Below, piece by piece: positions 2,416 to 62,278 of a stretch of DNA of 64,000 nucleotides. The position numbers and the translations under genes are program-made. The notes under the pieces were generated by a model. The model made no database searches and was not told where the DNA came from. It worked only from the letters and a program-made list of their open reading frames with translations. The stretch comes from Sandaracinus sp. (GTDB lineage Bacteria; Myxococcota_A; Polyangia; Polyangiales; Sandaracinaceae). Where the stretch lies: NCBI GenBank assembly GCA_046351235.1, contig JAXLYV010000014.1, positions 2,453 to 66,452 of the forward strand, read 5' to 3'. The stretch's first letter is position 1, and each line of letters begins with the position of its first letter.

Positions 2416-3432
2416 TCACGGGGCCTCTCGATCGGGATGGGCGCCCAGCGCGGCGGCGAGCTGGGCGAGGGCGGCGCGCGAGGGCAGGCCGAGGCGGCGC
2501 ACGATCTGATCGAGCGCGCGGCTGATGGCGCTCTCGCTGACGCCGAGGTGATAGGCGATGGCCTTGTTGGAGTGGCCCATCGCGACGTAGGCGGCGATGG
2601 CGCGCTGCGAGGCAGACAGCACGTCGGGCCCGGGCGCGGCGGGCTCGTTCTTGCGCAGGACGAAGTAGCGCTTCCGGTCGGTGTCGAAGGTGTCGACCAG
2701 CGACCAGCGGCCGGCGACGAGGGCGCGCCACGCGGCGACGAGGCGCGCGGGATCGCTCGTGCCGTGCCGCGCGGCGAGCACCTCGGCGGCGTCGCGGATC
2801 GTCTCGAGGTGGCTCTCGGCCTCGCTGCTCGCGTGCACGGCGCGTCGCGTGCGCGGATCGAGCACGGCGTCGGCCGCGTCGAGCGACGCCTCGGCCGGCA
2901 ACGCGCGCAGCCGCTCGCGCAAGCGCAGCGCCGCCGCGAGGTGCGAGGCGACGCGGTCCCACTTGCGCTGATCGGTCGCCGAGAAGTGGCCGGGCGCGCT
3001 CAGCCCGCCGATCAGCACGGCGCCGATGCCACTCGTATCCATCGAGATCAGGCCGATGCAGTCGGCGAGCGGGAAGCGGACGGGAAAGCTCGCGACACGC
3101 GCGAGGGCCTCGCCCTGCAAGCCGTACGTCGCGGTGGCCGTCGCGAGCGCGCTCGCGCGGTGGAGCATCACCTCCTGCGCGCGAGGCATCGGCAGATGGT
3201 GATGTCGGACGTCGCGATCGAGGTCCGCTCCCTCGGGGAGCTGGATCGCTGCGCAGGACCGATAGGCGCCTCGCGGCACGTCGACGATCCACCCGTGCAC
3301 GAAGCTGCCGTGATCGAGCACCGGCCGCGCGGCCTCGAGCACGCCGCGCAACCACGTCTCGTCGTCGGCGGCGAGCGAATAGCCGGCATCGGCGACCGCG
3401 ATCATCGCGGCCTCCGGCGCTTGCAGCCGCAT
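2416..3432 (-). CDS. LuxR-family transcriptional regulator with an unknown N-terminal domain
   Basis: The C-terminus carries a LuxR HTH: LSASQRAIAAYVAMGHSNKAIAYHLGVSESAISRALDQIVRRLGL. I placed the start at MRLQAPE (3432). Alternative in-frame starts are at 3510 and 3405. Confidence 0.75.
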   Translation of the reverse strand: MRLQAPEAAMIAVADAGYSLAADDETWLRGVLEAARPVLDHGSFVHGWIVDVPRGAYRSCAAIQLPEGADLDRDVRHHHLPMPRAQEVMLHRASALATATATYGLQGEALARVASFPVRFPLADCIGLISMDTSGIGAVLIGGLSAPGHFSATDQRKWDRVASHLAAALRLRERLRALPAEASLDAADAVLDPRTRRAVHASSEAESHLETIRDAAEVLAARHGTSDPARLVAAWRALVAGRWSLVDTFDTDRKRYFVLRKNEPAAPGPDVLSASQRAIAAYVAMGHSNKAIAYHLGVSESAISRALDQIVRRLGLPSRAALAQLAAALGAHPDREAP

Positions 3433-3560
3433 CCCCCGACGACCCACGCGCGCAGCGTACCGAAGCCACGCCGCCGACGCGATGGGGGCCGCCTCCGCGC
3501 AACCGATCACTATGGAGATGGGCGGGCGCCCGCGGGAAACCTCTCCCGGGGAGGCTCTCC

Positions 3561-12213: not shown

Positions 12214-12219
12214 ACCCTC

Positions 12220-13908
12220 TTGCGCCTGGTCGATGCACGCCGGCTCCGTGGCCCCACGCTCGGTGCGAGCGGCCCCGGCGCGATCGCCGAGATCGCGCTC
12301 GAGGAGGGCGAGCGCCCGGACGTCGTGATCCGCGCGTGGCGTGCCGCGCTCGCGGGCGTGCTCGCCTGGGCCGGGCGCGGCGAGGTGGGGCGCGGGCTCG
12401 AGGTGCGTCGATTCGACGGTGGGGTCGCGCTCTTCATCCCGAGCCCGGTCGACGGCGTGGATGCGACGCTCGACCTGCTCGAGTGGTCGGTGGGCTACGT
12501 CGCGGAGCGCACGAAGGGCAAGGGGTCGCCGGCGGCGCTCCGCGCGGCCTCGGAGCGGTTCCGCGAGGCGCTCGCCGCGGAGGCGAGCCCGGGCCTCGTG
12601 CGCCTGCGCGCCGAGGCGGCCGAGCGCGGGATCCCGAGCTTCGTCGACGACGAGCGCGTCACCTTCGGTCACGCCGCGCGCTCGCACACCTACGAGCGAC
12701 GCGCGCTCCCGACCGCGGTTCCGTGGCGCGAGCTCGGCGCGATTCCGGTCGCGCTCGTCACCGGCACGAACGGCAAGACGACGACGACCCGCATGGTCGC
12801 GCGCATCGCCAAGCACGCGGGGCTCGTGCCCGGGAACACGTCGTCCGACGGCATCGCGATCGGCGAGCGCATCGTGGAGCGCGGGGACAACACGGGCGGC
12901 GAGTCGGCGCGCGCGGTGCTGCGCGATCCGCGCGTCCAGATCGCGATCCTCGAGACGGCGCGCGGGGGCTTGTTGCGGCGAGGCCTCGCGGTCACCGACG
13001 TCGACGCGGCGCTCATCACGAACGTGAGCGAGGACCACCTCGGCGAGCACGGCGTGCTCGACCTCGACACGATGCGCGAGACGAAGGCCGTCGTGGGCCA
13101 CGCCGTGAAGAAGGGCGGCAAGGTCGTGCTCGGCGCCGACGACGCGGGGCTACGCGCGATGGCCAAGAGCTTTCGCGCCGAGCGCGTGCTCTTCGCGATC
13201 GACCCGCGCTCGGTGCGGGCGCACCTGCGCGCAGGCGGTCACGCGTTCACCGTCGAGCGCGGCGTCCTCGTCCACCGGGGCCCGAAGCGGCGCGAAGAGA
13301 TCGTGCGCGTGGTCGACGTCCCCGTCACCGATGGCGGTCGCGCCCTCCACAACGTGAAGAACGCGCTCGCCGCCGCGGCGCTCGCGTGGTCCCTCGGCCT
13401 CCCCACGCGGGCGATCGCCGAGGGCCTGCGGAGCTTCGGCGAGAAGCGGGGCGACAACGAAGGACGCGGGCAGCTCGCCCTCACCGACGACGGCGTGCGC
13501 GTGCTGCTCGACTTCGGCCACAACCCGGCCGCCGCGACCCATCTCTACGCGTGGGCGCGCTCGCTCGCCGGCGACGCGCGGGTGCTCGCCGTGCTCACGC
13601 AGCCCGGGGATCGGACCGACGCGGCGATCGAGGCGTTCGTCCGCAGCGTGGTCGACGCGGGGGCGCGCACGATCGTGGCGTGGGAGCGCGAGAGCTTGCG
13701 GCGTGGGCGCGAGGCAGGCGAGGTGGTGCGGGCGATCACGCGAGCGGCGCGCCAGGTGGCGCGCGGCGTGAGGGTGGTGCACGCGAGCGACGAGGCCGAC
13801 GCGATCGGCCGCGCCGTGGCGCTCGCGAAGCGAGGCGACGTGATCGTCGTCTCGCCCAGCCTCGATCGCCGGCTTCCGATCAGTGCGAGACGGACGCGTC
13901 GAGCGTGA
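12220..13908 (+). CDS. CphA-like protein with N and Mur-ligase-like (M) domains but no ATP-grasp domain
   Basis: The TTG start lies 7 nt after the cphA stop. The N-terminus MRLVDARRLRGPTLG parallels the CphA N-terminus. The segment RGIPSFVDDERVTFGH parallels CphA RGIPWFRLNSRSLIQLGH. The P-loop VALVTGTNGKTTTTRM then follows directly at about aa 180, with LLDFGHNPAAA later. Confidence 0.8.
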   Translation: MRLVDARRLRGPTLGASGPGAIAEIALEEGERPDVVIRAWRAALAGVLAWAGRGEVGRGLEVRRFDGGVALFIPSPVDGVDATLDLLEWSVGYVAERTKGKGSPAALRAASERFREALAAEASPGLVRLRAEAAERGIPSFVDDERVTFGHAARSHTYERRALPTAVPWRELGAIPVALVTGTNGKTTTTRMVARIAKHAGLVPGNTSSDGIAIGERIVERGDNTGGESARAVLRDPRVQIAILETARGGLLRRGLAVTDVDAALITNVSEDHLGEHGVLDLDTMRETKAVVGHAVKKGGKVVLGADDAGLRAMAKSFRAERVLFAIDPRSVRAHLRAGGHAFTVERGVLVHRGPKRREEIVRVVDVPVTDGGRALHNVKNALAAAALAWSLGLPTRAIAEGLRSFGEKRGDNEGRGQLALTDDGVRVLLDFGHNPAAATHLYAWARSLAGDARVLAVLTQPGDRTDAAIEAFVRSVVDAGARTIVAWERESLRRGREAGEVVRAITRAARQVARGVRVVHASDEADAIGRAVALAKRGDVIVVSPSLDRRLPISARRTRRA

Positions 13909-18615: not shown

Positions 18616-20025
18616 ATGCAGCTCCGCCCCTTCGCTTTCTTCTCGCTCGTGGTCGCGCTCGCGGTCACTCCCGCGTGCAGCGCGCTCGTGGCTCCGGACA
18701 CCTCTCGCCTCGGAGGCAGCGACGGGGCGGTCTCCGGTCACGACGGCGGCGGTGGCGGCGTCGATGCCGGCATGGGTCACGACGGCGGCGGTGGCGACGG
18801 TGGTGGCGGGGGATGCGCCACGGGCTGCGACGACGGAATCCCGTGCACGACGGATGCGTGCGACACGGCGCGCAGCACCTGCACGCACACCCCCGACGAC
18901 GCCGTGTGCGGCGCGGGCATGCGCTGCGCGGTGCAGGCCGGCTGCGTCGCGATGCAGTGCGCGAGCGACGCGGAGTGCAGCGACGGGAACGCGTGCAACG
19001 GGATGGAGCGCTGCCAGCCCGGCTCGGGCGGCTCCGATCCGCGGACGGGATGTCGCTCGTCGGACCCGCTCGACTGCGCCGACGGGTCGGACTGCACGCA
19101 GGACTCCTGTGATCCCGCGACGGGCTGTGTCCACGCGCCGATCCCGGACTTCTGTGACGACGGCTTCGCGTGCACGGCCGACTCGTGCGGAGCGGACGGC
19201 TGCGTGCACGAGACGAACGACGCCGCGTGCAGCGGCGGCTGCCTCGTCGGCGCGCGCTGTGACGTGAACGCCGGCTGCGTGGGCGGTGCGCCGATGAGCT
19301 GTCCGGCCGACGGCAATCCGTGCACCACGGACCCGACGACGTGCGATCCGGGCACGGGCACCTGCCTCCATCCGCCTCGCGACGACGACGGTGACGGCTT
19401 CGCCATCGAGACCGCGGTCAACCAGGCGGGCATGACGGTCACCTGCGAGGGCGGGACGGACTGCGACGACACCGATCCCGACGTGAGCCCGAACGGGATC
19501 GAGGTCTGCAATGCCATCGACGACGACTGCAACGGCCTCGTGGACGACGGCGACGTCTGCGGGATGACGGGCCCCGATGGCTGCTCGACCGCGACGGCGC
19601 TGACGCCCGGCGTGCCGACGGTCGCTTCGACGGCCGGCCTCCGCGACGACTTCGCGACCAGCTGCGGCGGTCGCGGCTCGCCGGATGCCGTGTACTACGT
19701 CGACATCCCCGGCGGCGTGCTGACGGGTGCCGTGGACGTGATCCTGACGACGGATGCGCCCGAGACGACCTACGACACCGTGCTCGGCACGTACCTCGCG
19801 ACGGGTGTGACGGGGCGCTGCCCGACCACGCAGTTCGGGTTCAACAACCGCTGCAACGACGACATCACACCCGCGAACACGAACAGCCGCGTCACGGTCT
19901 GCGTCAACGGCAGCATCGTCACGGCCGGGGCTCGCCTCTTCGTCCTCGTCGACGGCGCCGCGAACGAGTCGGGCGCCTACTCGGTGACGGCGCAGATCAT
20001 GCCGCGCAGCACGCCCTGCAACTGA
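18616..20025 (+). CDS. Secreted Cys-rich protein with one MopE-type motif and a C-terminal beta-sandwich-like module
   Basis: The ATG at 18616 is preceded by GGAGG at 18604. Signal MQLRPFAFFSLVVALAVTPAC. Repeated C-x-D-x-x-C units. MopE-type motif DCDDTDPDVSPNGIEVCNAIDDDCNG. The C-terminus is related to that of the 13880..15562 product. Confidence 0.75.
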   Translation: MQLRPFAFFSLVVALAVTPACSALVAPDTSRLGGSDGAVSGHDGGGGGVDAGMGHDGGGGDGGGGGCATGCDDGIPCTTDACDTARSTCTHTPDDAVCGAGMRCAVQAGCVAMQCASDAECSDGNACNGMERCQPGSGGSDPRTGCRSSDPLDCADGSDCTQDSCDPATGCVHAPIPDFCDDGFACTADSCGADGCVHETNDAACSGGCLVGARCDVNAGCVGGAPMSCPADGNPCTTDPTTCDPGTGTCLHPPRDDDGDGFAIETAVNQAGMTVTCEGGTDCDDTDPDVSPNGIEVCNAIDDDCNGLVDDGDVCGMTGPDGCSTATALTPGVPTVASTAGLRDDFATSCGGRGSPDAVYYVDIPGGVLTGAVDVILTTDAPETTYDTVLGTYLATGVTGRCPTTQFGFNNRCNDDITPANTNSRVTVCVNGSIVTAGARLFVLVDGAANESGAYSVTAQIMPRSTPCN

Positions 20026-52238: not shown

Positions 52239-52907
52239 TCAAGCGAGCGGGCCGGGCATGCGATCGGGGTCGAGCCGCCCTCCGCGGCGCCAGCCGACGC
52301 GCAGCAACCAGGTTCGTGGAGGGGGCAGCGCGCGCTCGCCGGCCGCGCCACCGAGCCACCCATCGAACGACGGTGCCGACGAGAGCGGGTCGAGCCAGCC
52401 CGACACGGGCGGAGCGACGCGGTGCTTACGCGCATTGCAGAGCACGTAGGCGAGCGCGTTGCGCACCTGCCGCGGCGTCCCGAGCGCGCGGTGATGGAAC
52501 CGATCGGCGAAGACCTTGCCGCGGCGGTCGAGCGAGCGGTTGAGCGCACGCGCGAGGCGCACCGCGAGCCCCTGCATCGCGCGGGCGAGCGCGCGTTCAT
52601 CGCGCGTCTCGACGATGAGATGGATGTGGTCGCTCTGCACCGAGTACTCGACGATGCGGCTGCCGAGGCGCGCGCTCGCGCGGTGCAAGCTCGCGAGCAC
52701 CGCGCGGAAGCGCCGACGGCTACGCAGGTTCGCGAGGCCGGCGAGCACCTTCATCGTGACGAGCACCGGCGCTGCGCCGCCGAGCTTGCCGCGCCGTGCG
52801 TGCTTCACGCCGGCGCGTGCGCCACGGGGCTTGCGGCCTGCGCCCGGTCGCGCACCACCGTGGGGCCGGAAGTCGAGAGTCGTTTGGGTCGATCGTCTCG
52901 GTCTCAT
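52239..52907 (-). CDS. REP-associated tyrosine transposase / IS200-like transposase (222 aa)
   Basis: Start MRPRRSTQTTLDF at 52907. HUH motif SDHIHLIV. Catalytic Tyr context NALAYVLCNARKH. Confidence 0.8.
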   Translation of the reverse strand: MRPRRSTQTTLDFRPHGGARPGAGRKPRGARAGVKHARRGKLGGAAPVLVTMKVLAGLANLRSRRRFRAVLASLHRASARLGSRIVEYSVQSDHIHLIVETRDERALARAMQGLAVRLARALNRSLDRRGKVFADRFHHRALGTPRQVRNALAYVLCNARKHRVAPPVSGWLDPLSSAPSFDGWLGGAAGERALPPPRTWLLRVGWRRGGRLDPDRMPGPLA

Positions 52908-52942
52908 TGTCGAGGAGACGCACGGCACCGACGGCGACTGAC

Positions 52943-53165
52943 GCGCTGCGAAGATGATTCGGCACAGATTCCTCCTCGCGCTTGGTAGGCGCCTCCCTCG
53001 CATCTTCGCAGCGCACGGCGTGCGCTGCGAAGATGATTCGGCACAGATGCCCCTCGCGCGCCCGCCAGAGTGGAGGCCGCGCCGCGCACGCGAGTCGGCA
53101 CGGATCCCCCGCGCGCGCCGGCCGAAGTGCCGCCGTGGTCTGCGAGCGTGATTCGGCACCGATGC
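52943..53165 (+). repeat. REP-like repeats
   Basis: A 27-nt exact direct repeat, GCGCTGCGAAGATGATTCGGCACAGAT, occurs at 52943-52969 and 53022-53048. A degenerate third copy, CTGCGAGCGTGATTCGGCACCGATGC, is at 53140-53165. A perfect 15-bp-stem hairpin, CATCTTCGCAGCGCA-cggcg-TGCGCTGCGAAGATG, is at 53001-53035. Confidence 0.85.
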
Positions 53166-53313
53166 GTGCGCGAGCGCGCGCATGCGCATCTCGCGGCCCA
53201 CGCGCGGAAGCGACGAATGGTCCGCTCCCACGGAGTCGGAGAGGGACCGAGCTAGGGGATCGTCGGGGAGCGATCGACGCGACTGCGGAGGGATCGCGGA
53301 TGCGCGAGGCCCG

Positions 53314-55533
53314 TCAGGGCGCGCCGTGGATCGTCACGGTGAGCGCGCCCGGGTCGCCCGCGTGCTCGCCGACGTGGAGGGCGTAGTCGATGGGCTCGAG
53401 CACCCACGCGCTCGTGCCGACGTCCCAGATGCGGAGGTCGTCGGCGCGCACCTCGAGCGTGACGTCGCCGCTCGCGTGGGGATCGAGCTCGATCTGGGCG
53501 AAGGCGCGCAGGTCCTCCGGGGCGCGCTCGACGCTCGAGCCGACGGCCGACGCAAAGAGCTCGACCGTCTCGATCGCGCGCACGTCGCCCTCGTTCGTCA
53601 CCGTGACGGTCACGTCGACGGTCTCCCCGGCGTGCACCTCGGTCGCGCTCACCCGCGGCGCCGAGAGCGCGAACGTCGTGTACGAGAGGCCGAAGCCGAA
53701 GGGATAGGCGGGCGTGGTGCCCTCGTGCGCGAGGTGGCGGTAGCCGTGGAAGTAGCCGTAGTCGACGGTGTCCGAGACGTCGTCGAACGTCGGCAGGTCG
53801 CTCTCGAGGACGGGCATCGAGAACGGAAGGCGGCCCGAGGGCGCCGCGTCGCCGAAGAGCACGTCGGCGACGGCGTTTCCGCCCTCGGAGCCCGGATAGC
53901 CGGCGAACAGGAGCGCCTCGATCTCGGCATCCCAGGGCCGCGTGATCAGTGCGGCGCCGGCCTCGAGCACGACGACGACGCGGTCGTTCGCGGCCGCGAC
54001 GGCGTGGATCAACGCGACCTCCTCGGCGGGCAGATCGAGGCTCGCGCGATCGCCCGCCGAGATCTCGGCCTCGCCCTCGTCGGTGCGCTGCAGGCCCGTC
54101 ACGACGACGACCACGTCGGCCGCGCTCACGGTGGCGAGCGCGCTCGTGTCGAGCACGGCGCCGGGCAAGTGCGTCACCGTCGCGGTGGCGCCCGCGCGCG
54201 CGCGGATCCCCTCGAGCGCGGTCACGACGCTCGTCGGCAGCACGTCGCTCGAGCCGTCGTCGCCGATGTTCTCTTCGTCGGCGTTCCGCCCGACGACCAC
54301 GATCGAGTGGACGCCGGCATCGAAGGGCAGCGCAGACGCCTCGTTGCGCAAGAGCACGATGCCGCGGCGCGCGACCTCGCGGGCGAGCGCGAGGTGCTCG
54401 GGCGTCTCGCGCTGCGAGGGATCGTCGATCACGACGCCGGGCGTGCGCGGGACGGTGTCCAGATCGAAGCAGAGCTGTGTGCGCAGCACCTCGCGCACGC
54501 GGGTGTCGAGCAGCTCGCGCGTCAGCACGCCGTCGCGGTACTCGCCGGCGAGCGGACGGAAGTGCGACTCGGTGGGCATCTCGATGCTCAGCCCGGCCGC
54601 GAGCGCCTCGGTCGCGCCGTGCGTGCCGAACACCCAGTCGGACTCGACCACCCCGGAGAAGCCCCACTCGCCGCGCAGGATGTCGCCGAGCAGGTGCGCG
54701 TTCACGTCGCAGAAGTGGCCGTTGAGCGAGTTGTACGCGCTCATCACGGTGCCCGCGTGCCCGTCGACGATCACGCGCCGGAAGTGCGGCAGGTAGACCT
54801 CGCGCAGCGTGCGCTCGTCCATGCGCACGTCGACGCGGTGACGGTTGTTCTCGATCGAGTTGCCGGCGAAGTGCTTCACGCTCGCGAGCACGTGCTCGCT
54901 CTGCACGCCCTCGACGAAGGCGAGGCCCATCTCGCCGAGGTGGTGCGTGTCCTCGCCGTAGGTCTCCTGCGCACGCCCCCAGCGCGGATGGCGCAGCACG
55001 TTGATCGTGGGCGCCAGGATCACGTCGGCGCCCGCCGAGCGATGCTCGACGCCCATCGCCGCGCCCACGCGGCGCTCGAGCGCGGGATCCCAGCTCGCAC
55101 CGCGCAGCATGCCGACGGGGAACGCCGTGCCGTGACGCCGCGTGAAGCTCGAGAGCCCGCGCGGCCCATCGAGCATGTGCAGGCCTGGCAGGCCGAGGCG
55201 CTCGTTGCCCGGCACGAGCCAGGTGCCGTCGACGAGGAGCACGCTCGCGCCGTGGAGCAGATCGAGCTTCTCCTCGAGCGACATCTGCGAGAGCAGATCC
55301 GTGATCCGCGCCTCGATGACGGCGTCGTCGTGGCCGGCGCAGTAGGCGATCGTGGCGGGCGTCGGCGTGAACGGCGTCGCGGCCCAGAGCTCGGCCGCGT
55401 CGGCGCGCGGCGGCGCATCGCGACCGACGTCGCTCGCGGACGCGTCGTCGGGGCCGGCATCGGGCTCGTCGACCGGCGTCGTCGTGCACGCGGCCGATGC
55501 GAGAAGGAGGAAGAGAATCGCGAGGAAGCGCAC
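53314..55533 (-). CDS. Glycoside hydrolase family 3 (beta-glucosidase-like) lipoprotein
   Basis: Lipobox LLLASAAC. GH3 motifs: INVLRHPRWGRAQETYGEDT, KHFAGNS, GFSGVVESDW (nucleophile Asp context). A C-terminal fibronectin-like domain is present. Confidence 0.9.
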   Translation of the reverse strand: MRFLAILFLLLASAACTTTPVDEPDAGPDDASASDVGRDAPPRADAAELWAATPFTPTPATIAYCAGHDDAVIEARITDLLSQMSLEEKLDLLHGASVLLVDGTWLVPGNERLGLPGLHMLDGPRGLSSFTRRHGTAFPVGMLRGASWDPALERRVGAAMGVEHRSAGADVILAPTINVLRHPRWGRAQETYGEDTHHLGEMGLAFVEGVQSEHVLASVKHFAGNSIENNRHRVDVRMDERTLREVYLPHFRRVIVDGHAGTVMSAYNSLNGHFCDVNAHLLGDILRGEWGFSGVVESDWVFGTHGATEALAAGLSIEMPTESHFRPLAGEYRDGVLTRELLDTRVREVLRTQLCFDLDTVPRTPGVVIDDPSQRETPEHLALAREVARRGIVLLRNEASALPFDAGVHSIVVVGRNADEENIGDDGSSDVLPTSVVTALEGIRARAGATATVTHLPGAVLDTSALATVSAADVVVVVTGLQRTDEGEAEISAGDRASLDLPAEEVALIHAVAAANDRVVVVLEAGAALITRPWDAEIEALLFAGYPGSEGGNAVADVLFGDAAPSGRLPFSMPVLESDLPTFDDVSDTVDYGYFHGYRHLAHEGTTPAYPFGFGLSYTTFALSAPRVSATEVHAGETVDVTVTVTNEGDVRAIETVELFASAVGSSVERAPEDLRAFAQIELDPHASGDVTLEVRADDLRIWDVGTSAWVLEPIDYALHVGEHAGDPGALTVTIHGAP

Positions 55534-55598: not shown

Positions 55599-56825
55599 AT
55601 GACGAACGGGCGGGTCGTGATCGTGGGGGCGAGCCTGGCGGGAGGGCGCGCGGCCGAGCAGCTGCGCCGCGGGGGCTGGACGGGCGCGATCACGCTCGTG
55701 GGCGCGGAGAAGGAGCGGCCCTACGATCGGCCGCCGCTCTCGAAGAAGGTCATCAAGGGCGGCTTCGACGAGAGCAAGCTCTACTTCCGCGCGCCCGGTT
55801 GGTACGAGGAGCAGCGCATCGAGCTCGTCACGGGCACGCGCGCGCGCGGCCTCGACACGACGGCGCGCGAGGTGGAGCTCGAGGGTGGGCGGCGCCTGCC
55901 CTTCGATCACCTGCTGATCGCGACCGGCGCCGCAGCGCGCCCGCTCGACTGCGAGGGCGCGGGCCTCGAGGGCGTGCACGTGCTCCGCACGCTCGAGGAC
56001 GCGCGCGCGATCGAGGCTCTCGTCCGGACCAAGAAGCGCGTCGTCGTCGTGGGCGCCGGCGTCATCGGTGCCGAGGTCGCCGCGTGCTGCCGCGAGGCCG
56101 GCCTCGACGTCGTGATGCTCGAGCTCGCCGACAAGCCGCTCCTGCGCGCGTTCGGCGCGTTCGTCGGCGACTTCTACGCGGGCGAGCACCGCCAGAAGGG
56201 CGTCGAGCTGCGCTGCGGCGTGGGCGTCGCGGCGATCCGTGGCGCGGGTCGCGTCGAAGAGGTCGTCACGACGAGCGGCGAGCGCATCCCGTGCGACTTC
56301 GTCGTCGTCGGCATCGGCGTGCTGCCCGAGACCGCGTGGCTCGAGGGCTCCGGCGTGCGCTGCGATCGCGGCGTGCTCGTCGATGCGCACTGCGAGACGA
56401 GCGTGCCGGGGATCTATGCGGCGGGTGACGTCGCGCGCGGGCCGGCGCGCGCGCTCGGCGGCCAGCACGTGATCGTCGAGTCGGTCGACAACGCGCAGAC
56501 GCAGGGCGCGTGCGTGGTCGCGAACCTGCTCGGCAAGCGCGAGGAGCACGACACCGTGCCCTTCTTCTGGTCGGATCAGTTCGATCTCAAGATGCAGAGC
56601 GTCGGCCACGTGCAGGCCTTCGATCGCGTCGTGCTCCGCGGCTCGCGCGAGGCGCGCGCCTTCGTCGCGTTCCACCTGCGTGAGGGCAAGCTCGCGTTCG
56701 CGATCGGCGTCAACCGCCTCAAGGAGATCGCGGGCGCCAAGAAGCTGATCGCGGCCGGGGTGCCGGTGACCGAAGCAGCGCTCGCCGACGAGAGCGTCGC
56801 GCTCTCGTCGTTGCTGCCGCGATAG
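55599..56825 (+). CDS. FAD-dependent pyridine-nucleotide-disulfide oxidoreductase (ferredoxin-reductase type)
   Basis: VVIVGASLAGGRAA is the FAD GxGxxG motif. VVVVGAGVIGAEVA is the NAD(P) GxGxxG motif. IYAAGDVA is also present. Confidence 0.85.
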   Translation: MTNGRVVIVGASLAGGRAAEQLRRGGWTGAITLVGAEKERPYDRPPLSKKVIKGGFDESKLYFRAPGWYEEQRIELVTGTRARGLDTTAREVELEGGRRLPFDHLLIATGAAARPLDCEGAGLEGVHVLRTLEDARAIEALVRTKKRVVVVGAGVIGAEVAACCREAGLDVVMLELADKPLLRAFGAFVGDFYAGEHRQKGVELRCGVGVAAIRGAGRVEEVVTTSGERIPCDFVVVGIGVLPETAWLEGSGVRCDRGVLVDAHCETSVPGIYAAGDVARGPARALGGQHVIVESVDNAQTQGACVVANLLGKREEHDTVPFFWSDQFDLKMQSVGHVQAFDRVVLRGSREARAFVAFHLREGKLAFAIGVNRLKEIAGAKKLIAAGVPVTEAALADESVALSSLLPR

Positions 56826-57142
56826 AACGTCGGCAGCCGTCGGAGCGTCGCGCGCGTGTTGCTCGCACGCGATCTAGCGGACGCGAGCTTCGTCCATGCG
56901 TCGGCGTGCGAGGAACCTCGGGCACGTCTTGGCGGAGACCACACCCGTCCGAGGAACGTCGGACGCGGTTTTCGTCGCGCGTAGGCGTCCAACGCGCCGT
57001 AGGTGCCGGCCTTCGCTCGAGGGGTCCGCACGAGGAATTCGCGGAGCGACTTTTACGGACGTGTTCGTGTCCGAGGTCCGCGCAACGCACCTCTGGTGGT
57101 TCGGCCCCGCGTTCTGTACCGTGCCCGCCGGGAGGAAACACG

Positions 57143-57898
57143 ATGGCCAAGGAGATCACGAAGCTCGTCAGCAATCGCACGGGATCGGCGCGCGCCGTAG
57201 GCGCAGCGCTGGAGGTGCACGTCGCCAAACGCGCTGCCCAGATCGAGCAAGCGCTCGGGGTCAAGGCGGGGCGGAAGCTCTCCGTCTCGGAGCTCGTCGA
57301 CGCGTTGCGGACCGCGCTGCTCTCTCGCGCGAGCGAGCTGGAGGGCGCCGAGCAAGCGTACGCCGAGGAGCTCGGCGACGATCCGCCCGCGCGCGACGCG
57401 CGCGACGCTGCGGTCGTCGCACTGCGAACGTCGATCGACGAGATCGCAGGGACCATTTCGGGCGCGTTCGGCGCGGAGAGCCTCTCTCGCTACAAGCTCG
57501 ATCAATCGGTCCCGGTGGCGCCGGACATGCTCGTCACCTACGCGAAGAACGCGGCCAAGTCGGTGAAGCGTGGCGCGCCGAAGACGACGCCACGCAAGGG
57601 ACGCAAGCTGGACTTCGCCGTTCTCGCGAGTGAGCTGGAGGCAGGCGCGGCGTCGCTCAAGAAGACGCTCGACGTGGTGAAGCGCGAGGAGCGCGAGGCC
57701 GAGGGGGCTCTGGCCGCGCGCGACGCGAAGATTGCGGCGTTCGAGCCGGCGTACGGGGGCATCGCGAGCATCGCCGCCGGTCTGCTCGAGCTGGCCGGAG
57801 AGCCCGACCTCGGCGAGCGCGTGAAGCCGACCGCGCGGCGCAAGGCCGGGCTCGAAGCGGCGCCAGAAGTTCCTCCGGTCGAGCCGCCGAGGAATTGA
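57143..57898 (+). CDS. Hypothetical helical, charged protein (251 aa); cassette gene A
   Basis: SD GGGAGGA at 57130-57136, 6 nt before the ATG. MAKEITKLVSNRTG... Predicted coiled-coil-like, with a Lys/Arg-rich middle and a Pro-rich tail. GC3 is lower than in flanking genes. Confidence 0.6.
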   Translation: MAKEITKLVSNRTGSARAVGAALEVHVAKRAAQIEQALGVKAGRKLSVSELVDALRTALLSRASELEGAEQAYAEELGDDPPARDARDAAVVALRTSIDEIAGTISGAFGAESLSRYKLDQSVPVAPDMLVTYAKNAAKSVKRGAPKTTPRKGRKLDFAVLASELEAGAASLKKTLDVVKREEREAEGALAARDAKIAAFEPAYGGIASIAAGLLELAGEPDLGERVKPTARRKAGLEAAPEVPPVEPPRN

Positions 57899-58072
57899 GC
57901 GATAGCGACGTCACCGGGCTACCCGCTCGACCGTGCGGTGGAGGTGACGATGACGCGACACGATGCGGAGCGTATTGACTCGTGGGGGGGGGCCACGAGT
58001 ACATTCGTCGCACGGTGTTGGGGTGGGCACCATCTACCTGGCTCGCCCGCCGTCATCGAGGAGGCGCGACCA

Positions 58073-58483
58073 ATGTCAGGAACCGAGATCATCGTGCAGC
58101 GTATGATGGACCACGACATGAGCGGCGTGGCCGTCTCGAGCGCCATCGGGCCCATCGTCCTGGCTGAACTGGACGTCTCCCAGTGGCGCGAAGGAACGCT
58201 CGAGGTTCTGGTGCGCAACGCGACCGTGCCCACGGGTGCCGCGATCACGGTCGACGTCTACGCGATGGCGCGCACGGACGACGATCCGGCCAAGATGTAC
58301 ACCAAGTCGCAGAGCATCGCGACGGTCACCATCAACGCGACCTCGACGAGCGCCGCCTACGTCCTTGCGCCGTTCAGCGCGAACTTCGGTGGGATGGTAG
58401 CGGTCGCGTACACGGCGACACGCGCGACCACCGCCGGCACATTCAGCAGTACGTTCGAGACCCGAATCTCGCTGAAGGACTGA
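58073..58483 (+). CDS. Hypothetical Thr/Ala/Val-rich, probably all-beta protein (136 aa); cassette gene B
   Basis: SD GAGGAGG at 58058-58064, 8 nt before the ATG at 58073 (MSGTEIIVQRMMDHDM...). It lies in the frame of track ORF 57938..58483. Confidence 0.55.
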   Translation: MSGTEIIVQRMMDHDMSGVAVSSAIGPIVLAELDVSQWREGTLEVLVRNATVPTGAAITVDVYAMARTDDDPAKMYTKSQSIATVTINATSTSAAYVLAPFSANFGGMVAVAYTATRATTAGTFSSTFETRISLKD

Positions 58484-58511
58484 CGACGATGTCGGCCACG
58501 AAGAGGCTGGC

Positions 58512-59684
58512 ATGCTGAAGCGCGACGCGACCCAACGGATCGCCGCTGTCGCCGTGACGACGCGACCTGCCCCCCGGGCGACGCCCGTCCCGCCAGCGCA
58601 CCGTTCGCCGGCCATCACGGTTGGCGAATACCAGCGACGGGGCGCGCGGAACGGTCAGATCGGATCCGCGCGAGAGACGCCAAACCACTCGTGCGGTTGC
58701 TCGAAGGCAGGCTCCGCTGGAAAGGCGTGTGCCTGCGGGGCGGGCGCAAGGAAGTGTGGGGCCGGATGTGCCTGCGGATCGGGCCAGCAACCGAACGGGG
58801 CGCAGGCGAGCGCCGCAGCAGACGTCGCAGCGAGCGTGCGTAGGCTGGCCGCGAGGACCACACGCTTGATGGCTGGCACCCAGTCGAGCTATCGCGCAGG
58901 CACCGCAGGCACGGGAGGCCTCGGCAACCTCGGACCCATCAAGGCTGCGGTGCAACGAGTTTGCATGGTGACGCTGACTGCGGAGCAGCACTCGTGGTTG
59001 GAGGCCGCACGAGCGGCAGCGAACCAGACTCGGCACAAGTGGGATTTCGACCGCCGGGTCCATCCGCCGACCTGCGCCGACCTCACCCGCGGGCAGGAAG
59101 CTACCGCCGGATGGCAGACCGGAGAGGAGTACCTCTGGTACAACTCGTTCCTGGGAGCATTCCACGACGGGACGCCGGAGCACGCCCTCGCCCCGTCCAT
59201 TCCGCCGGAGGCTTGGAACTGGATCATCGATCTGTCGATCGCTCCGGGTGGACCTTTGATGTCCCTTGTGGACAGCACGTTGGGCGAGCGTACGATCTCG
59301 ACCTACACCGACACAGGGGCGCAATGTAGCTGGACGGGCAAAATAGCTGGAGAGCTTCCCTTCCCCGATTCGTATCCAGTGCCCTGCCCGGAGCTTGCGG
59401 ATCCTAGACTCGCGCAGCTTCTTGGGGATCCCCGTTTCTCGCCCCGCACCCCTCAGGGGATGAAGATGCTGGATGCGATTCGCGGACAGGTTGGGACAGA
59501 GAGGCCTTGCCGATGCCGTGCGTGCTCGGGGTTTCGCGGGGGCTGCCGGACGAACTGCAGGTACACGTGCGGGTTTGGCACTGCATACGTGTGCAGTTGC
59601 GCAGGCGCGTGTCCTCCCAGCGTCGACAGCATCGAGGAGCTTCTCGGAATGCCGGGCGTCTTTTGCCAGATGCCGTGGCCCTAG
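58512..59684 (+). CDS. Hypothetical protein with two metallothionein-like Cys clusters flanking a Trp-rich core (390 aa); cassette gene C
   Basis: The frame is open for 390 codons in locally lower-GC DNA. N-terminal cluster: CGCSKAGSAGKACACGAGARKCGAGCAC. C-terminal cluster: CRCRACSGFRGGCRTNCRYTCGFGTAYVCSCAGAC. AAGAGG lies upstream of the ATG. No signal peptide. Confidence 0.55.
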   Translation: MLKRDATQRIAAVAVTTRPAPRATPVPPAHRSPAITVGEYQRRGARNGQIGSARETPNHSCGCSKAGSAGKACACGAGARKCGAGCACGSGQQPNGAQASAAADVAASVRRLAARTTRLMAGTQSSYRAGTAGTGGLGNLGPIKAAVQRVCMVTLTAEQHSWLEAARAAANQTRHKWDFDRRVHPPTCADLTRGQEATAGWQTGEEYLWYNSFLGAFHDGTPEHALAPSIPPEAWNWIIDLSIAPGGPLMSLVDSTLGERTISTYTDTGAQCSWTGKIAGELPFPDSYPVPCPELADPRLAQLLGDPRFSPRTPQGMKMLDAIRGQVGTERPCRCRACSGFRGGCRTNCRYTCGFGTAYVCSCAGACPPSVDSIEELLGMPGVFCQMPWP

Positions 59685-59761
59685 GCCCTACACAGGCCGG
59701 CCGCTCGTGGATCTTCCGCGATTGGATCGCGGGTTGCTTGGAGGCGTCTGGCCTCGGACGA

Positions 59762-60520
59762 GTGTCGCTGGAGTCCACTGCCCAGTTGGGTCGACTGGAC
59801 TGGCGGTTGGACGGTAGTGATCTCTGGCCTCGTCGCGTCATTCGCACGCGCGGTGCGGGTCGACCGGAGTTGACGAAGCTCGTCGACGCAGTCGTGATGT
59901 GGCGGCTCGCACGTCGCAGTTGGGGCCTCATCACCGCGAAGTGGATGCAGTCCGCGTGCATCGCTGTCGGAGGTGGCAGGATGGCGTCCGTCGCCGGAAG
60001 CACACGCGCGCTGGCCTGCATTCCCGGAATACCGTACACGGACCCGAGCGAGCGCCTGCGTGAGGGGGTTGTCCATGGCCTCGCAGTTCACGCCATCTTG
60101 AATCAGAGCTCGCGGCGGCGCCGCGTCTACGATGTCGCTGCGATCGCGCGGTTCGTTCGGATGACCTGTCTGGCGCAGGCCGTCGTACCCGATTTCGCCC
60201 CGAAGCTCGCCCGCGCGCTACGTAGGGAGCTGGCGAAAGCCGAGGCCGCTCGCTGCAATGACACTCCACCCTTGGCGAAGCGAACGCCAACCTTTCCCGC
60301 GCCTACCCTCATCGCCGGGGACGGGACTGCGGTGCGGCTTCGGCTGAGCGCTTTTCGCCGCAGCGGAGCTCGGGTGGAACTGCACGGCCCGACGGGTGTC
60401 GTGCTTTCGATGGATGCAGGTAGCGATCAAGAAGCGGAGGCCTTGCGGTGGCTCCTGGTAGGCGCCCAATCGATCGTCGTTGGATCGCCTCACCAGCGCC
60501 GAACGTCACGCAAGAAGTGA
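59762..60520 (+). CDS. Hypothetical Arg-rich protein; cassette gene D (start uncertain)
   Basis: Track ORF 59507..60520 overlaps gene C by 178 nt. I trimmed it to the first GTG after the gene C stop (59762). No motif recognised. Confidence 0.4.
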   Translation: MSLESTAQLGRLDWRLDGSDLWPRRVIRTRGAGRPELTKLVDAVVMWRLARRSWGLITAKWMQSACIAVGGGRMASVAGSTRALACIPGIPYTDPSERLREGVVHGLAVHAILNQSSRRRRVYDVAAIARFVRMTCLAQAVVPDFAPKLARALRRELAKAEAARCNDTPPLAKRTPTFPAPTLIAGDGTAVRLRLSAFRRSGARVELHGPTGVVLSMDAGSDQEAEALRWLLVGAQSIVVGSPHQRRTSRKK

Positions 60521-60613: not shown

Positions 60614-62278
60614 TCAGTACGGGCTGTCGCGGTAGCCCTCGACGTGGGTGTCACCCGTCGTCGTGGTCTCGCCGCCGGTCTCTTCGTGCGCCGTCGTCGC
60701 GCGCGGGATGCGCACGAGGCGCGCGTTGAGCTCGAGCGTCCCGCCGCTCACGGTCGCGTCCATCGGCAGGTCGCGGAAGCCCGCGCGCGAGAACACGAAG
60801 TGCAGCGAGGCGCCCTCGGCCGCCTGGTCGCCGGTGAGCTCGACCTCGGTCGGCGTCGGGCCGAAGGTGCGATCGCCCAACGTCACCATCGCGCCCGTGG
60901 GCTGCGAGCGGAGCGAGACGAGCACCGTGCGGATCTCCGTCGCGGGCGCCGTCACCGTCGTCGTCGTGGGCACGGCCACGACGCTCGTGGGCGGCGTCTC
61001 GCCGTGGGTCGGCGGCGGCAGCGTGCCCTGCGTCGTCGGCGGCGCGCTCGTGGTCGTCGCCGGCACGGGCCCGCTGGCGCCGCCCATCAGCACCCAGCCG
61101 CCGCCGAGCGCGAGCACGAGCGCGAACACGCCCGCGAGCGCCATCCACGCGCCGTTGCCGCGCGCCGGCGGCGCGATCGAGGTCGGCAGCGGCGGCGCCG
61201 CCGGAATCGACGAGTTCGCGGCGGCCGAGAGCGCGCCCGACGAGCTCGTGGCGAGCATGTTCGGCCCGCTCGCGCTCGACGTCGTGAGCGGGGGCGCGAG
61301 CGAGAGCACGCCCGAGCGCTGCGCATCCCACTCGCCCGTCATCGCCGCGATCTGGCCCGACGACGACGAGATCGCGCCGCCCAGCGCTTCCTTCAGCGCG
61401 AGCAGCAGCTGGTCCATGTCCGCCCAGCGCTCGTCGCGCACCTTCGCGAGGCAGCGCATCGTCACGTGCACCACGCCGAGCGGCAGCGGCGTCTTGCCCT
61501 CGGGCGCCGCGACCGTCTTCGGGATCTCGCGGATGTGGTCCATGAGGACCTGCATCGGCTGATCGCGCACGAAGGGCGGCCGGCCGCTCAGCATCTCGTA
61601 GAGAATCACGCCGACCGAGTAGAGGTCGCTGCGCGCGTCGAGCTTCTCGCCCTGGATCTGCTCGGGCGACATGTACTTGGGCGAGCCCGTGAACACGCCC
61701 GTCTGCGTGATGTCCTCGACCTCGCCGTTCTCACCGCCGGTGTCCTTCGCGAGCCCGAAGTCGAGGACCTTCACGGTCTCTTCGCCGCCGCGCTCGACGA
61801 GCATCACGTTGCCCGGCTTCATGTCGCGGTGGACGATGCCGAGCCGGTGTGCCTCGCGCAGCGAGCGCGCGATCTGCTTGGCGATCTCCACGGCGCGCTC
61901 CGGATCGAGCGCCCCTTCCTTCGCGATCACTTCCTTGAGCGTCTGCCCCTCGAGCAGCTCCATCGCGATGAAGTAGAGGCCGTCGTCCGTCTGGCCGTAA
62001 TCGAACACACGAACGGTGTTCGGGTGCGTGAGCTTCGCGGCCGTGGAGGCCTCGAGGAGGAAGCGCTTGCGGAACTCGGGGTCCTGGTCTTCGTCGTGGC
62101 GGAGCGAGAGGATCTTGATGGCGACCGCACGGCCCAGCGGGAGCTGCTCGGCGCGGTACACGGCGCCCATGCCGCCACGCGCCAGCGCGGAGAGGATGCG
62201 GAAGCGCCCGTCGAGCGTGCGGCCGACGAGGCTCTCCGGCGCGTCCACCCCCGTGGACTTCGAAGCGGGCTGGTTCAT
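60614..62278 (-). CDS. Ser/Thr protein kinase with TM helix and C-terminal PEGA-like domain
   Basis: GGMGAVYRA..AIK, HRDMKPGNVML, VLDFGLAK, GSPKYMSPEQ. TM helix WMALAGVFALVLALGGGWVLM. PEGA-like segment VSLRSQPTGAMVTLGDRTFGPTP. Confidence 0.9.
   Translation of the reverse strand: MNQPASKSTGVDAPESLVGRTLDGRFRILSALARGGMGAVYRAEQLPLGRAVAIKILSLRHDEDQDPEFRKRFLLEASTAAKLTHPNTVRVFDYGQTDDGLYFIAMELLEGQTLKEVIAKEGALDPERAVEIAKQIARSLREAHRLGIVHRDMKPGNVMLVERGGEETVKVLDFGLAKDTGGENGEVEDITQTGVFTGSPKYMSPEQIQGEKLDARSDLYSVGVILYEMLSGRPPFVRDQPMQVLMDHIREIPKTVAAPEGKTPLPLGVVHVTMRCLAKVRDERWADMDQLLLALKEALGGAISSSSGQIAAMTGEWDAQRSGVLSLAPPLTTSSASGPNMLATSSSGALSAAANSSIPAAPPLPTSIAPPARGNGAWMALAGVFALVLALGGGWVLMGGASGPVPATTTSAPPTTQGTLPPPTHGETPPTSVVAVPTTTTVTAPATEIRTVLVSLRSQPTGAMVTLGDRTFGPTPTEVELTGDQAAEGASLHFVFSRAGFRDLPMDATVSGGTLELNARLVRIPRATTAHEETGGETTTTGDTHVEGYRDSPY

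Follow-up and report, generated by a model that had tools for sequence, protein, structure and literature searches.

A Sandaracinus locus that joins a predicted jelly-roll gene to a cysteine-rich gene with a conserved head and a variable tail

Do four neighbouring genes of atypical composition constitute one imported module, and what might such a module do? This question is raised by positions 57143-60520 of a stretch of DNA from a metagenome-assembled genome (MAG) of Sandaracinus sp. (Myxococcota, Polyangia), where four genes on the same strand, hereafter g1 to g4, lie between a reductase gene and a convergent Ser/Thr kinase gene. Throughout, the window denotes the whole stretch of 64,000 nucleotides (nt; 72.3% GC) that was analysed, taken from a contig of 67 kb, and coordinates are those of the window unless another contig is named. 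An earlier note, made from the sequence alone, had read the four genes as a single horizontally acquired cassette and had offered a defence system, a toxin/immunity pair, metal handling or a virus remnant as possible functions. Here we find that the locus is composite, consisting of an independent g1 and a g2/g3 core with a replaceable tail. The four products are indeed unrecognisable, with no Pfam, NCBIfam, PHROGs or PADLOC family. More specifically, searches of Pfam, NCBIfam and PADLOC with g1-g4 and their relatives, and of PHROGs with g1-g4, returned nothing above noise except a weak match of g1 to the PQLLE family.

The features of the locus are listed below (aa, amino acids; ORF, open reading frame).

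57143-57898, + strand: g1, 251 aa
57899-58072: spacer between g1 and g2, non-coding
58073-58483, + strand: g2, 136 aa
58484: breakpoint of homology with the paralogous locus, directly 3' of the g2 stop codon
58512-59684, + strand: g3, whole ORF, 390 aa
58512-58790, + strand: conserved N-terminal module of g3, residues 1 to ~93, Arg/Pro-rich, with the first CxC cluster
58791-59684, + strand: variable remainder of g3, residues ~94-390, with the second Cys cluster at 59508-59612
59675-60520, + strand: g4, GTG start, 281 aa, 10-nt overlap with g3

In NCBI, g1 is recorded as MFO0686888.1 (U0234_32795) and g2 as MFO0686889.1 (U0234_32800). The protein records of g3 and g4 come from Logan assemblies only, and neither has an NCBI-sourced record.

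The g2/g3 pair and the second copy of the locus

The g2 family is very rare. A search of 5.8 billion clusters returned six proteins, namely the annotated copy of g2 itself, a near-identical paralogue and four diverged members (50-69% identity), and a single g2 locus was found among 185,579 species-representative genomes. At each of four loci (the window, L005, L001 and L002, the last on the same contig as L017), a gap of 18-62 nt separates g2 from what comes next, which is either another g2-like unit or a g3-like gene. L001 carries two tandem g2 paralogues and then the gene of a 397-aa protein (L001_397). In L002, the gene after g2 (10492-12357) encodes a 621-aa protein (L002_621) of which residues 1-143 are g2-like and the rest is g3-like; this fusion links the g2 and g3 families in the manner of a Rosetta stone. 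Four short repeats of the form 'NVAAL..G..P' stand between the g2-like domain of this protein and its PCCEDC motif. The g3-like proteins have in common an Arg/Pro-rich start and a Cys motif, L001_397 and L002_621 both carry 'PCCxDC', and the Cys clusters vary in number and spacing among them.

As the earlier note had described, g3 encodes a protein of 390 aa with two dense Cys clusters, which comprise 21 Cys and span residues 61-88 and 333-367. Its N-terminus reads MLKRDATQRIAAVAVTTRPAPR, the first Cys is residue 61 and the maximum hydropathy over 19 residues is 0.98. Searching the same 5.8 billion clusters with g3 returned its self-match alone, there was no PDB sequence or Pfam match, and no relatives of g3 were found outside g2-linked loci. 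Between the window and L005, residues 9-89 of g3 are 54% identical in amino acids to the product of the ORF at 993-2816 of L005, and Smith-Waterman comparison of the two proteins gave z=18.7 for the N-terminus and z=1.0 for the remainder; the C-terminal part of g3 reached z 1.0-2.3 against the paralogue, the level of unrelated controls. The pair formed by L001_397 and L002_621 gave z=23.4 for the N-terminus and z=-0.3 for the remainder. The only significant link across the two pairs is again N-terminal, and is weak (g3 of the window against L001_397, z=5.9). Full-length homology of all four g3-like proteins is not supported, as hhalign found no match between the pairs and the C-terminal parts behave like unrelated controls. 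By these comparisons, g2 together with a g3-like gene is the actual conserved unit, in which the g3 head of ~90-170 residues is conserved between related loci and the rest has no detectable relation.

The MAG itself provides a second copy of g1. The paralogue P0036 (U0234_03095, protein MFO0681006.1), encoded on a 2.09-Mb contig, differs from g1 at 7 of 251 residues, and two Logan contigs, L005 and L006, carry g1 fragments that match P0036 without a single difference. Because its g1 fragment matches P0036, L005 is most likely the paralogous locus of the same MAG, with the proviso that MAG binning might mix strains. The g1-g2 copies (window 57143-58483; L005 1-960; L006) are ~97% identical in DNA. 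Compared per 60 nt, the window and L005 share 93-100% identity through g1, the spacer and g2 up to 58482; from 58483 onwards identity is 65-70%, and homology ends after ~58780. Synonymous divergence (dS) from L005 is 0.03 in g1 and 0.08 in g2, and 0.81 in the g3 N-terminus, a 10- to 25-fold rise, with ratios of nonsynonymous to synonymous divergence (dN/dS) of 0.24, 0.16 and 0.44, respectively. All indels between g3 and L005 up to 58728 are in frame (3, 3 and 6 nt). Taken together, the sequence comparison suggests a recent duplication or gene conversion of g1-g2 that ended at the g2 stop codon. Beyond g2, L005 contains a 607-codon frame with an HEAIH (HExxH) motif near the C-terminus, then an RCC1-like lipoprotein gene and a different convergent gene.

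Inside the first Cys cluster of g3, at 58728-58784, an 18-nt motif (TGTGCCTGCGG.GCGGGC) recurs at a distance of 39 nt and encodes a reiterated C-A-C-G. The length of the g3 ORF was considered as strong coding evidence and rejected as such, since 4.9% of composition-matched random sequences contain an open frame of at least 390 codons (p~0.05 in simulation).

The partner, g2, is an acidic protein of 136 aa with zero Cys that starts MSGTEIIVQRMMDHD, and no column of the six-member alignment has a Cys majority. The NCBI version is 121 aa long and begins at Met16. Because the N-terminal 15 residues (MSG...QR..DHD) are invariant or conserved across the homologues and a GAGGAGG Shine-Dalgarno sequence (SD) is present, we prefer the 136-aa start (ATG 58073) and consider the NCBI call probably too short. 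A GTG start further upstream (57938) was rejected, as comparison with L005 shows two 1-nt indels, at 57983 and 58072, that compensate each other and break the frame of this extension. AlphaFold2 (AF2) predicts an eight-stranded jelly-roll beta-sandwich, with a predicted local distance difference test (pLDDT) of 65 and a predicted template modelling score (pTM) of 0.60; the N-terminal 11 residues are unmodelled, and the 15-residue segment is conserved yet poorly modelled. The fold thus rests on a moderate-confidence model built from six sequences. Together with the all-helical AF2 model of g1 described below, it agrees with the earlier note's guesses of a beta-sandwich for g2 and a helical protein for g1.

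Foldseek searches of the PDB with this model gave Ena2A as the top match (9i0y, E 9.5e-5, TMt 0.59, 24% identity), other matches being Ena1B (7a02) and Ena3A (8pdz), then birnavirus VP2, other capsid jelly-rolls and TNF-like lectins. In BFVD, the matches are C1q-like heads of collagen-like proteins and tail-fibre tips. At the level of sequence, the g2 profile found nothing significant among PDB sequences and no Ena chain at E<=10; a match to Sarol-1 (E 1.2), obtained in the PDB sequence searches with the g2 and g4 profiles and g3, was disregarded. Likewise, Pfam searches with all six members of the g2 family returned no Ena family at E<=10.

The slot after the g3-like gene is occupied by g4 in the window and by an RCC1-like lipoprotein gene at the three other loci (L001 9262-10743, L002 12351-13529, L005 2614-4113). 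Because homologue alignments begin there, g4 most likely starts at GTG 59675. This start has no SD and lies within the end of g3, so that the two genes share 10 nt (GTGGCCCTAG). The product then has 281 aa with an isoelectric point (pI) of 11.4 and 13% Arg; the fourth protein is therefore Arg-rich, as the earlier note had it, and likely longer than the ~250 aa given there. Using phmmer on 1.84 billion representatives, we recovered g4 itself, P0030 (44% identity, E 1.5e-40) and P0031 (32%, E 8.8e-14), and the family alignment has 57 invariant positions. P0030 is also overlapped by its upstream gene (14 nt). The g4 profile found nothing significant among PDB sequences.

By inspection, the RCC1-like proteins have N-terminal signals of the lipoprotein type, namely LILGC, LSASC and LAGC, the last of these in the longer L005 ORF. 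Their genes overlap the preceding g3-like gene by 19 nt in L001 and by 7 nt in L002; an overlap in L005 exists only if the 499-aa ORF (2614-4113) is true, since the called gene starts at 2881, 64 nt after the stop of the g3-like gene. The idea that g4 is a degenerate RCC1 gene was rejected: with the three RCC1-like proteins as queries, tblastn found nothing in the window at E<=1e-3, and g4 had no match to any of the three in all-against-all BLASTP.

Base composition, g1 and the surroundings

The composition of the locus was examined through the GC content of third codon positions (GC3). It is 0.946-0.960 in three flanking genes, 0.861 in g1, 0.869 in g2, 0.744 in g3 and 0.716 in g4. Codons ending in A or T make up 5.3% of a reference of 5909 codons, as against 13.5% in g1, 12.5% in g2, 25.6% in g3 and 27.4% in g4. 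Within the 64 kb, the four lowest-GC windows of 1 kb fall at 58751-60500 (0.650-0.665 vs a mean of 0.724, standard deviation 0.025). In a rough GC3-based gene call, the evidently real genes of the window have GC3 0.85-0.96; g1 and g2 are at the low end of this native range and only g3 and g4 are strongly anomalous. Consequently, the atypical composition that the earlier note had ascribed to the whole cassette is borne out for g3 and g4 (GC3 0.72-0.74 vs 0.95) and only marginally for g1 and g2, and the rare codons it had listed are present and nearly confined to g3 and g4. By composition, g3 and g4 stand out as a genomic island would, and g1 and g2 do so marginally. A frame plot shows strong third-position periodicity in g1 and g2 and only modest periodicity in g3 and g4, and the overall GC of g3 is 0.667 vs 0.681 in the non-coding leader upstream of g1.

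The same dip recurs at the other loci of the family. Flanking genes have GC3 0.84-0.97 at all of them, except for a Laminin_G_3 gene upstream in L001 (0.79), while g2 genes have 0.80-0.90 and g3-like and next genes 0.65-0.80; at L016, a g4 homologue has 0.75 vs 0.88 in its neighbour. Because the dip is found at every other family locus, low GC3 is a trait of the gene family, without clear evidence of a single recent import, and the dip alone cannot date an import into the Sandaracinus genome.

The first gene, g1, occurs elsewhere on its own. Its search reported 21 proteins including itself, of which ~14 are full-length at 45-51% identity; the homologues number about 20 and all belong to Myxococcota MAGs (e.g. 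Byssovorax). The AF2 model (pLDDT 90.6) has long helices only, arranged in an elongated bundle, and a disordered Pro-rich tail, and Foldseek found nothing in the PDB at E<0.06; its matches, all at E>=0.06, are elongated helical bundles of a generic kind. In 16 of 19 members of the g1 family, weak co-linear matches were found to the C-terminal half of the NCBIfam model NF052641 ('PQLLE family'); at 13.5 bits for g1 and ~20 bits for the best member, these scores are far from the curated cut-off of 80, and the PQLLE family is itself uncharacterised, a literature search having found no paper on it.

Homologues of g1 occupy at least five distinct neighbourhoods, with RHS toxin, group II intron, LytTR two-component system, VanW and GST genes. 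No g2 relative was found beside g1 homologues in any neighbourhood examined, and g1 is absent beside the g2 homologues elsewhere; a helical protein encoded upstream of g2 in L002 was considered as a g1 relative and rejected (hhalign probability 0.1%). Because its homologues occur in unrelated contexts without g2, g1 is an independent gene, a conserved myxobacterial helical-bundle gene. The earlier note's single imported cassette is thus not supported: g1 and g2 homologues live apart, the GC3 dip is family-wide and signs of mobility were not found.

Near g1 homologues, one lineage carries a gene for a 2094-aa RHS/YD-shell toxin (L007-L010, 271-6555) and another a group II intron reverse transcriptase gene (L011, 4733-6193); these two neighbourhoods are variable regions of accessory type. 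In L008 (8001-10658; also in L009 and L010), a g1 homologue is convergent with the gene of a 585-aa Ser/Thr kinase across a gap of 123 nt. The kinase domain is 40% identical to that of the window kinase, which does not in itself prove orthology. The adjacency of g1 and a kinase gene could be ancestral, with g2-g4 inserted between, or could be due to chance given the many myxobacterial kinases.

The genes around the locus are given below.

52239-53231, - strand: ORF matching Y1_Tnp (IS200-like or REP-associated tyrosine transposase), E 6.5e-7
53314-55533, - strand: GH3 glycosidase gene
55599-56825, + strand: FNR-type (ferredoxin-reductase-type) reductase gene, Pfam Pyr_redox_2 and Reductase_C
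56826-57142, + strand: intergenic leader before g1, 317 nt
56946-56965, + strand: terminator-like hairpin from a terminator scan, 7-bp stem followed by TTTT
60614-62278, - strand: convergent Ser/Thr kinase gene, Pfam Pkinase and PEGA

The GH3, FNR and kinase genes and the further neighbours (RlmKL-like methyltransferase, ArgRS and glycine-cleavage P protein genes) are of a chromosomal housekeeping type. The coordinates in the earlier note hold in the sequence, including the FNR gene end at 56825, the kinase gene end at 60614 and the leader length of 317 nt, and so do its three SD motifs: GGGAGGA at 57131-57137 for g1 (N6 to ATG), GAGGAGG at 58058-58064 for g2 (N8 to ATG) and AAGAGG-N5-ATG for g3. 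The hairpin stands 120 nt past the FNR stop and probably serves the FNR gene, dividing the leader into an FNR 3' tail and a g1 promoter and 5' untranslated region of ~175 nt. Upstream gaps are also long at g1 homologues elsewhere (211-715 nt). When the regions 5' of g1 homologues were aligned, only the SD was common to all, with a TTGACA-like box in some and no conserved RNA-like element, and an Rfam scan of 56.5-60.7 kb gave no match at E<=1.

Searches for a mobile or viral context were negative. No g2 match was found in IMG/VR (2.9 million viral contigs; g2 was the only one of the four genes searched there) or by tblastn in INPHARED (50,697 phage records; likewise g2 only), 72,556 plasmids gave no tblastn match for g1, g2 or g4, and JGI metagenomes contained no relative of g2 or g4. 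The best PHROG for g1-g4 had only E 0.037, and PADLOC-DB 2.0 returned nothing for g1-g4 at E<=1 or for nine relatives and neighbours at E<=0.1. The 64-kb window contains no tRNA gene, flanking direct or inverted repeats amount to short GC-rich chance matches, and no integrase, replication, packaging or phage hallmark genes were found around the locus. The nearest transposase-like ORF (Y1_Tnp) is ~4 kb upstream, with the GH3 and FNR genes intervening. Positive evidence is therefore lacking for the defence system or virus remnant that the earlier note had entertained, as judged by PADLOC and PHROGs and, for g2, by the viral and phage collections. Elsewhere in the window, at 3774-5027 and 18832-19548, tblastn with a gene neighbouring L001 as query found encoded MopE-like Cu-binding Cys-rich repeat domains.

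Weighing the explanations

What, then, might the g2/g3 core do? We favour, with a probability of roughly 0.35, a polymorphic modular locus in which a carrier is combined with an exchangeable effector and partner, organised like myxobacterial sitBAI. In this hypothetical scheme g2 would oligomerise, as jelly-roll, TNF-like and Ena-like proteins do, and serve as the constant carrier or scaffold, to which the conserved N-terminal module of g3 would bind. The C-terminal domain of g3 would be the exchangeable 'business end', a toxin or an adhesin, and g4, translationally coupled to g3, would be its cognate partner, e.g. a factor that neutralises it or confers immunity. The g3 tail would be swapped when recombination occurs at the g2/g3 junction, and tail swapping together with fast evolution would keep GC3 low. 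The g2/g3 pair may thus resemble a swappable toxin or adhesin cassette, and a toxin/immunity pair would be the most attractive of the earlier note's options, on organisational grounds only.

Several observations appear to favour this modular reading. Among the sequence comparisons, it would be in keeping with the conserved g2/g3 pairing at four loci, with a conserved head and an unrelated tail in two independent pairs, and with the sharp break in identity and dS at the g2 stop seen against a same-MAG paralogue. It is further favoured by the stop/start overlap (in L005 only with the longer ORF) and the GC3 dip of g3-like and next genes at all loci, and by the HEAIH motif of the L005 variant, the self-assembling-type fold of g2 and the sitBAI precedent.

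A number of points weigh against it. None of the components has a domain that could be recognised as serving toxicity, immunity, secretion or trafficking (Pfam, PHROGs, PADLOC, NCBIfam), and the g3 N-terminus matches none of the known trafficking or secretion domains (Rhs, PAAR, LXG, TPS, MuF etc.). Inspection and hydropathy reveal neither a signal peptide nor a lipobox nor a transmembrane segment in g2 or g3, an export route is not evident, and no secretion-system genes occur among ten Pfam-scanned ORFs sampled from 43-55.5 and 62.3-64 kb. The g2 model is of moderate confidence (pLDDT 65). The g3 head is just ~54% identical between the two copies, and in classic polymorphic toxins the break falls inside the gene. 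The same RCC1-like type follows at three loci despite differing g3 tails, which is unexpected for a cognate immunity gene, and a pI as extreme as that of g4 would be atypical of an immunity protein. Finally, coding status is weakly supported for the g3 C-terminus (ORF length p~0.05, modest GC3 periodicity), and MAG/NCBI annotation apparently skipped both g3 and g4.

An alternative to which we give a limited but real chance is that these are uncoordinated lineage-specific hypothetical genes, neighbours by chance. On this view, weak constraint, poor expression or decay would affect at least the C-terminal two thirds of g3 and possibly g4, and low GC3 would reflect relaxed selection and neither a foreign origin nor an exchange of cassettes. 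The homologues of g3 are confined to itself and the N-terminus of a paralogue, its GC (0.667) is near that of the leader (0.681) with weak codon periodicity, a 390-codon ORF arises by chance with p~0.05, g3 and g4 have no NCBI protein record, and dN/dS of the g3 N-terminus (0.44) exceeds that of g1 and g2. However, a g3-like gene follows g2 in four of four loci with short spacers and an SD, the shared part of g3 has in-frame indels and dN/dS <1, and a 607-codon frame is kept open in the same register at the paralogous locus; moreover, two homologues of g4 were found (E 1.5e-40 and 8.8e-14), their alignment with g4 contains 57 invariant positions, and the stop/start overlap is conserved. An unlikely alternative is a structural or adhesive assembly with no toxin, in which g2 would form a jelly-roll oligomer or fibre and g3-type proteins would dock by their N-terminus as variable tip, anchor or cross-linker; the Cys clusters would bind metal or form disulfides after release, and the RCC1-like lipoproteins would anchor the assembly at the cell surface. 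This agrees with Ena2A, Ena1B and Ena3A as top PDB fold matches, with the C1q-like heads in BFVD, and with the conserved but poorly modelled N-terminal 15 residues of g2, which fit a connector or donor segment. It also agrees with the tandem subunits in L001 and the subunit-like domain fused to a g3-like protein in L002, as in tip proteins, and the 'PCCxDC' of L001_397 and L002_621 recalls the Cys-rich CC motifs of Ena fibres and tip fibrillae, which assemble without signals (PMC12357932). On the other hand, g2 has no cysteine, no Ena Pfam or PDB sequence match even at E<=10, TM-scores of just 0.5-0.6 on a model of pLDDT 65, no export signal and no Gram-negative precedent, and this explanation alone leaves the g4 and RCC1 alternatives unexplained.

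The remaining explanations have less in their favour. It is improbable, though conceivable, that the modular locus and the fibre meet in an undescribed, Polyangia-restricted polymorphic system, where a signal-less self-assembling Ena/TNF-like jelly-roll would display or deliver a Cys-rich protein whose C-terminal 'warheads' can be exchanged. Recombination at the g2/g3 junction would then shuffle the tail and the partner gene (g4 or RCC1-like) between paralogous loci. Metal handling, with g3 as a metallothionein-like or metal-cluster protein and the operon buffering or delivering Cu, Zn or Cd, is very unlikely. The 21 Cys in two dense CxC/CxxxC clusters of a protein without export signal, and the presence in L001, ~1 kb 3' of the module, of a gene for a MopE-like Cu-binding protein, would suit it, but there is no metal-related family match, Cys number and spacing are not conserved among g3-like proteins, the operon has no metal regulator or transporter, and the jelly-roll partner goes unexplained. 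Largely excluded, finally, is mobile-element cargo, that is a prophage or virus remnant with the jelly-roll as capsid protein, or an anti-phage defence island. The g2 fold also matches capsid proteins of birnavirus (VP2), nodavirus and circovirus, GC is low, and toxin-antitoxin genes (ParE, SocA_Panacea) lie near L001 and L002; against this stand the best PHROG at E 0.037, the absence of any relative in the viral, phage and plasmid collections searched, the absence of a PADLOC match in any member or neighbour, and the absence of an integrase, replication or packaging gene, tRNA or flanking repeats.

Myxobacteria depend for kin recognition and predation on surface and toxin systems that are polymorphic (TraA, SitA, Rhs and type VI secretion system effectors), and knowledge of such systems comes mostly from Myxococcus. 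Should the g2/g3 pair be a modular system in which a jelly-roll serves as carrier of an effector or adhesin, the Polyangia, which are poorly studied, would contribute a cassette system that differs in mechanism, and self-assembling jelly-rolls of the Ena/TNF-like type would be extended to a context in which they are new. If the pair is the Polyangia-restricted system, it would amount to a new route of kin discrimination or antagonism in social bacteria, or to the first Ena-like fibre with variable tips outside Firmicutes. If the genes are merely fast-evolving hypothetical genes, low GC3 in high-GC genomes would flag fast-evolving families as well as recent imports, and a second lesson would be that automatic annotation apparently missed g3 and g4.

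Comparison with known systems

Three known systems resemble parts of the locus. Trimeric TNF/C1q-like jelly-roll lectins (the N-terminal domain of BC2L-C, PLTL of Photorhabdus) and C1q heads are similar to g2 in size and predicted fold class, and such domains stand alone or within a larger protein, as does the g2-like domain in the L002 fusion. The matches have E 5e-3 to 1e-2 and 7-15% identity, and the g2-like domain of L002 is N-terminal, unlike most C1q heads, which are C-terminal.

With Ena1B, Ena2A and Ena3A of Bacillus, g2 shares a predicted eight-stranded jelly-roll of ~115-135 residues with a flexible N-terminal extension. As in Ena, there are tandem paralogous genes and no signal peptide, and Ena partner proteins carry Cys-rich N-terminal motifs. 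CC motifs rich in Cys are found in Ena fibres and their tip fibrillae, whose assembly proceeds without signal peptides (PMC12357932), and in S- and L-ENA an N-terminal connector is present whose CC motif forms inter-subunit disulfides (PMC12357932). Unlike S- and L-ENA, g2 has no Cys and hence cannot form a disulfide-linked N-terminal connector. There is no sequence-level relation to Ena, the structural match is moderate (TM 0.52-0.59 on a model of pLDDT 65), and g2 comes from a myxobacterium, which is Gram-negative and belongs to another phylum than the endospore-forming Firmicutes that carry Ena. The modelled Ena-like fold suggests that g2 may self-assemble.

The organisation of the locus is best compared with sitBAI of Myxococcus, which encodes the accessory beta-protein SitB, the polymorphic, OME-delivered lipoprotein toxin SitA and the immunity protein SitI (PMC5562445). 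SitA paralogues have a conserved N-terminus and unrelated C-terminal domains, with the immunity gene downstream; the signal of SitA is of type II, with a lipobox, and that of SitB is of type I (PMC5562445). In contrast, g2 and g3 show by inspection no signal-like N-terminus or lipobox, Pfam and NCBIfam found no nuclease or other toxin domain in g3, g4 or their relatives, three loci have an RCC1-like lipoprotein gene downstream and not a SUKH-type immunity gene, and the locus is not on an Mx-alpha-like element. Like sitBAI, the locus has, in this order, a gene for a small accessory beta-protein, a gene for a larger protein and an overlapping downstream gene; several copies are apparently present in one genome, they are restricted to myxobacteria, and paralogous copies have homologous N-terminal regions and unrelated C-terminal domains. 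Membership in sitBAI fails on the defining features of that system, which is nonetheless the closest organisational precedent for the locus.

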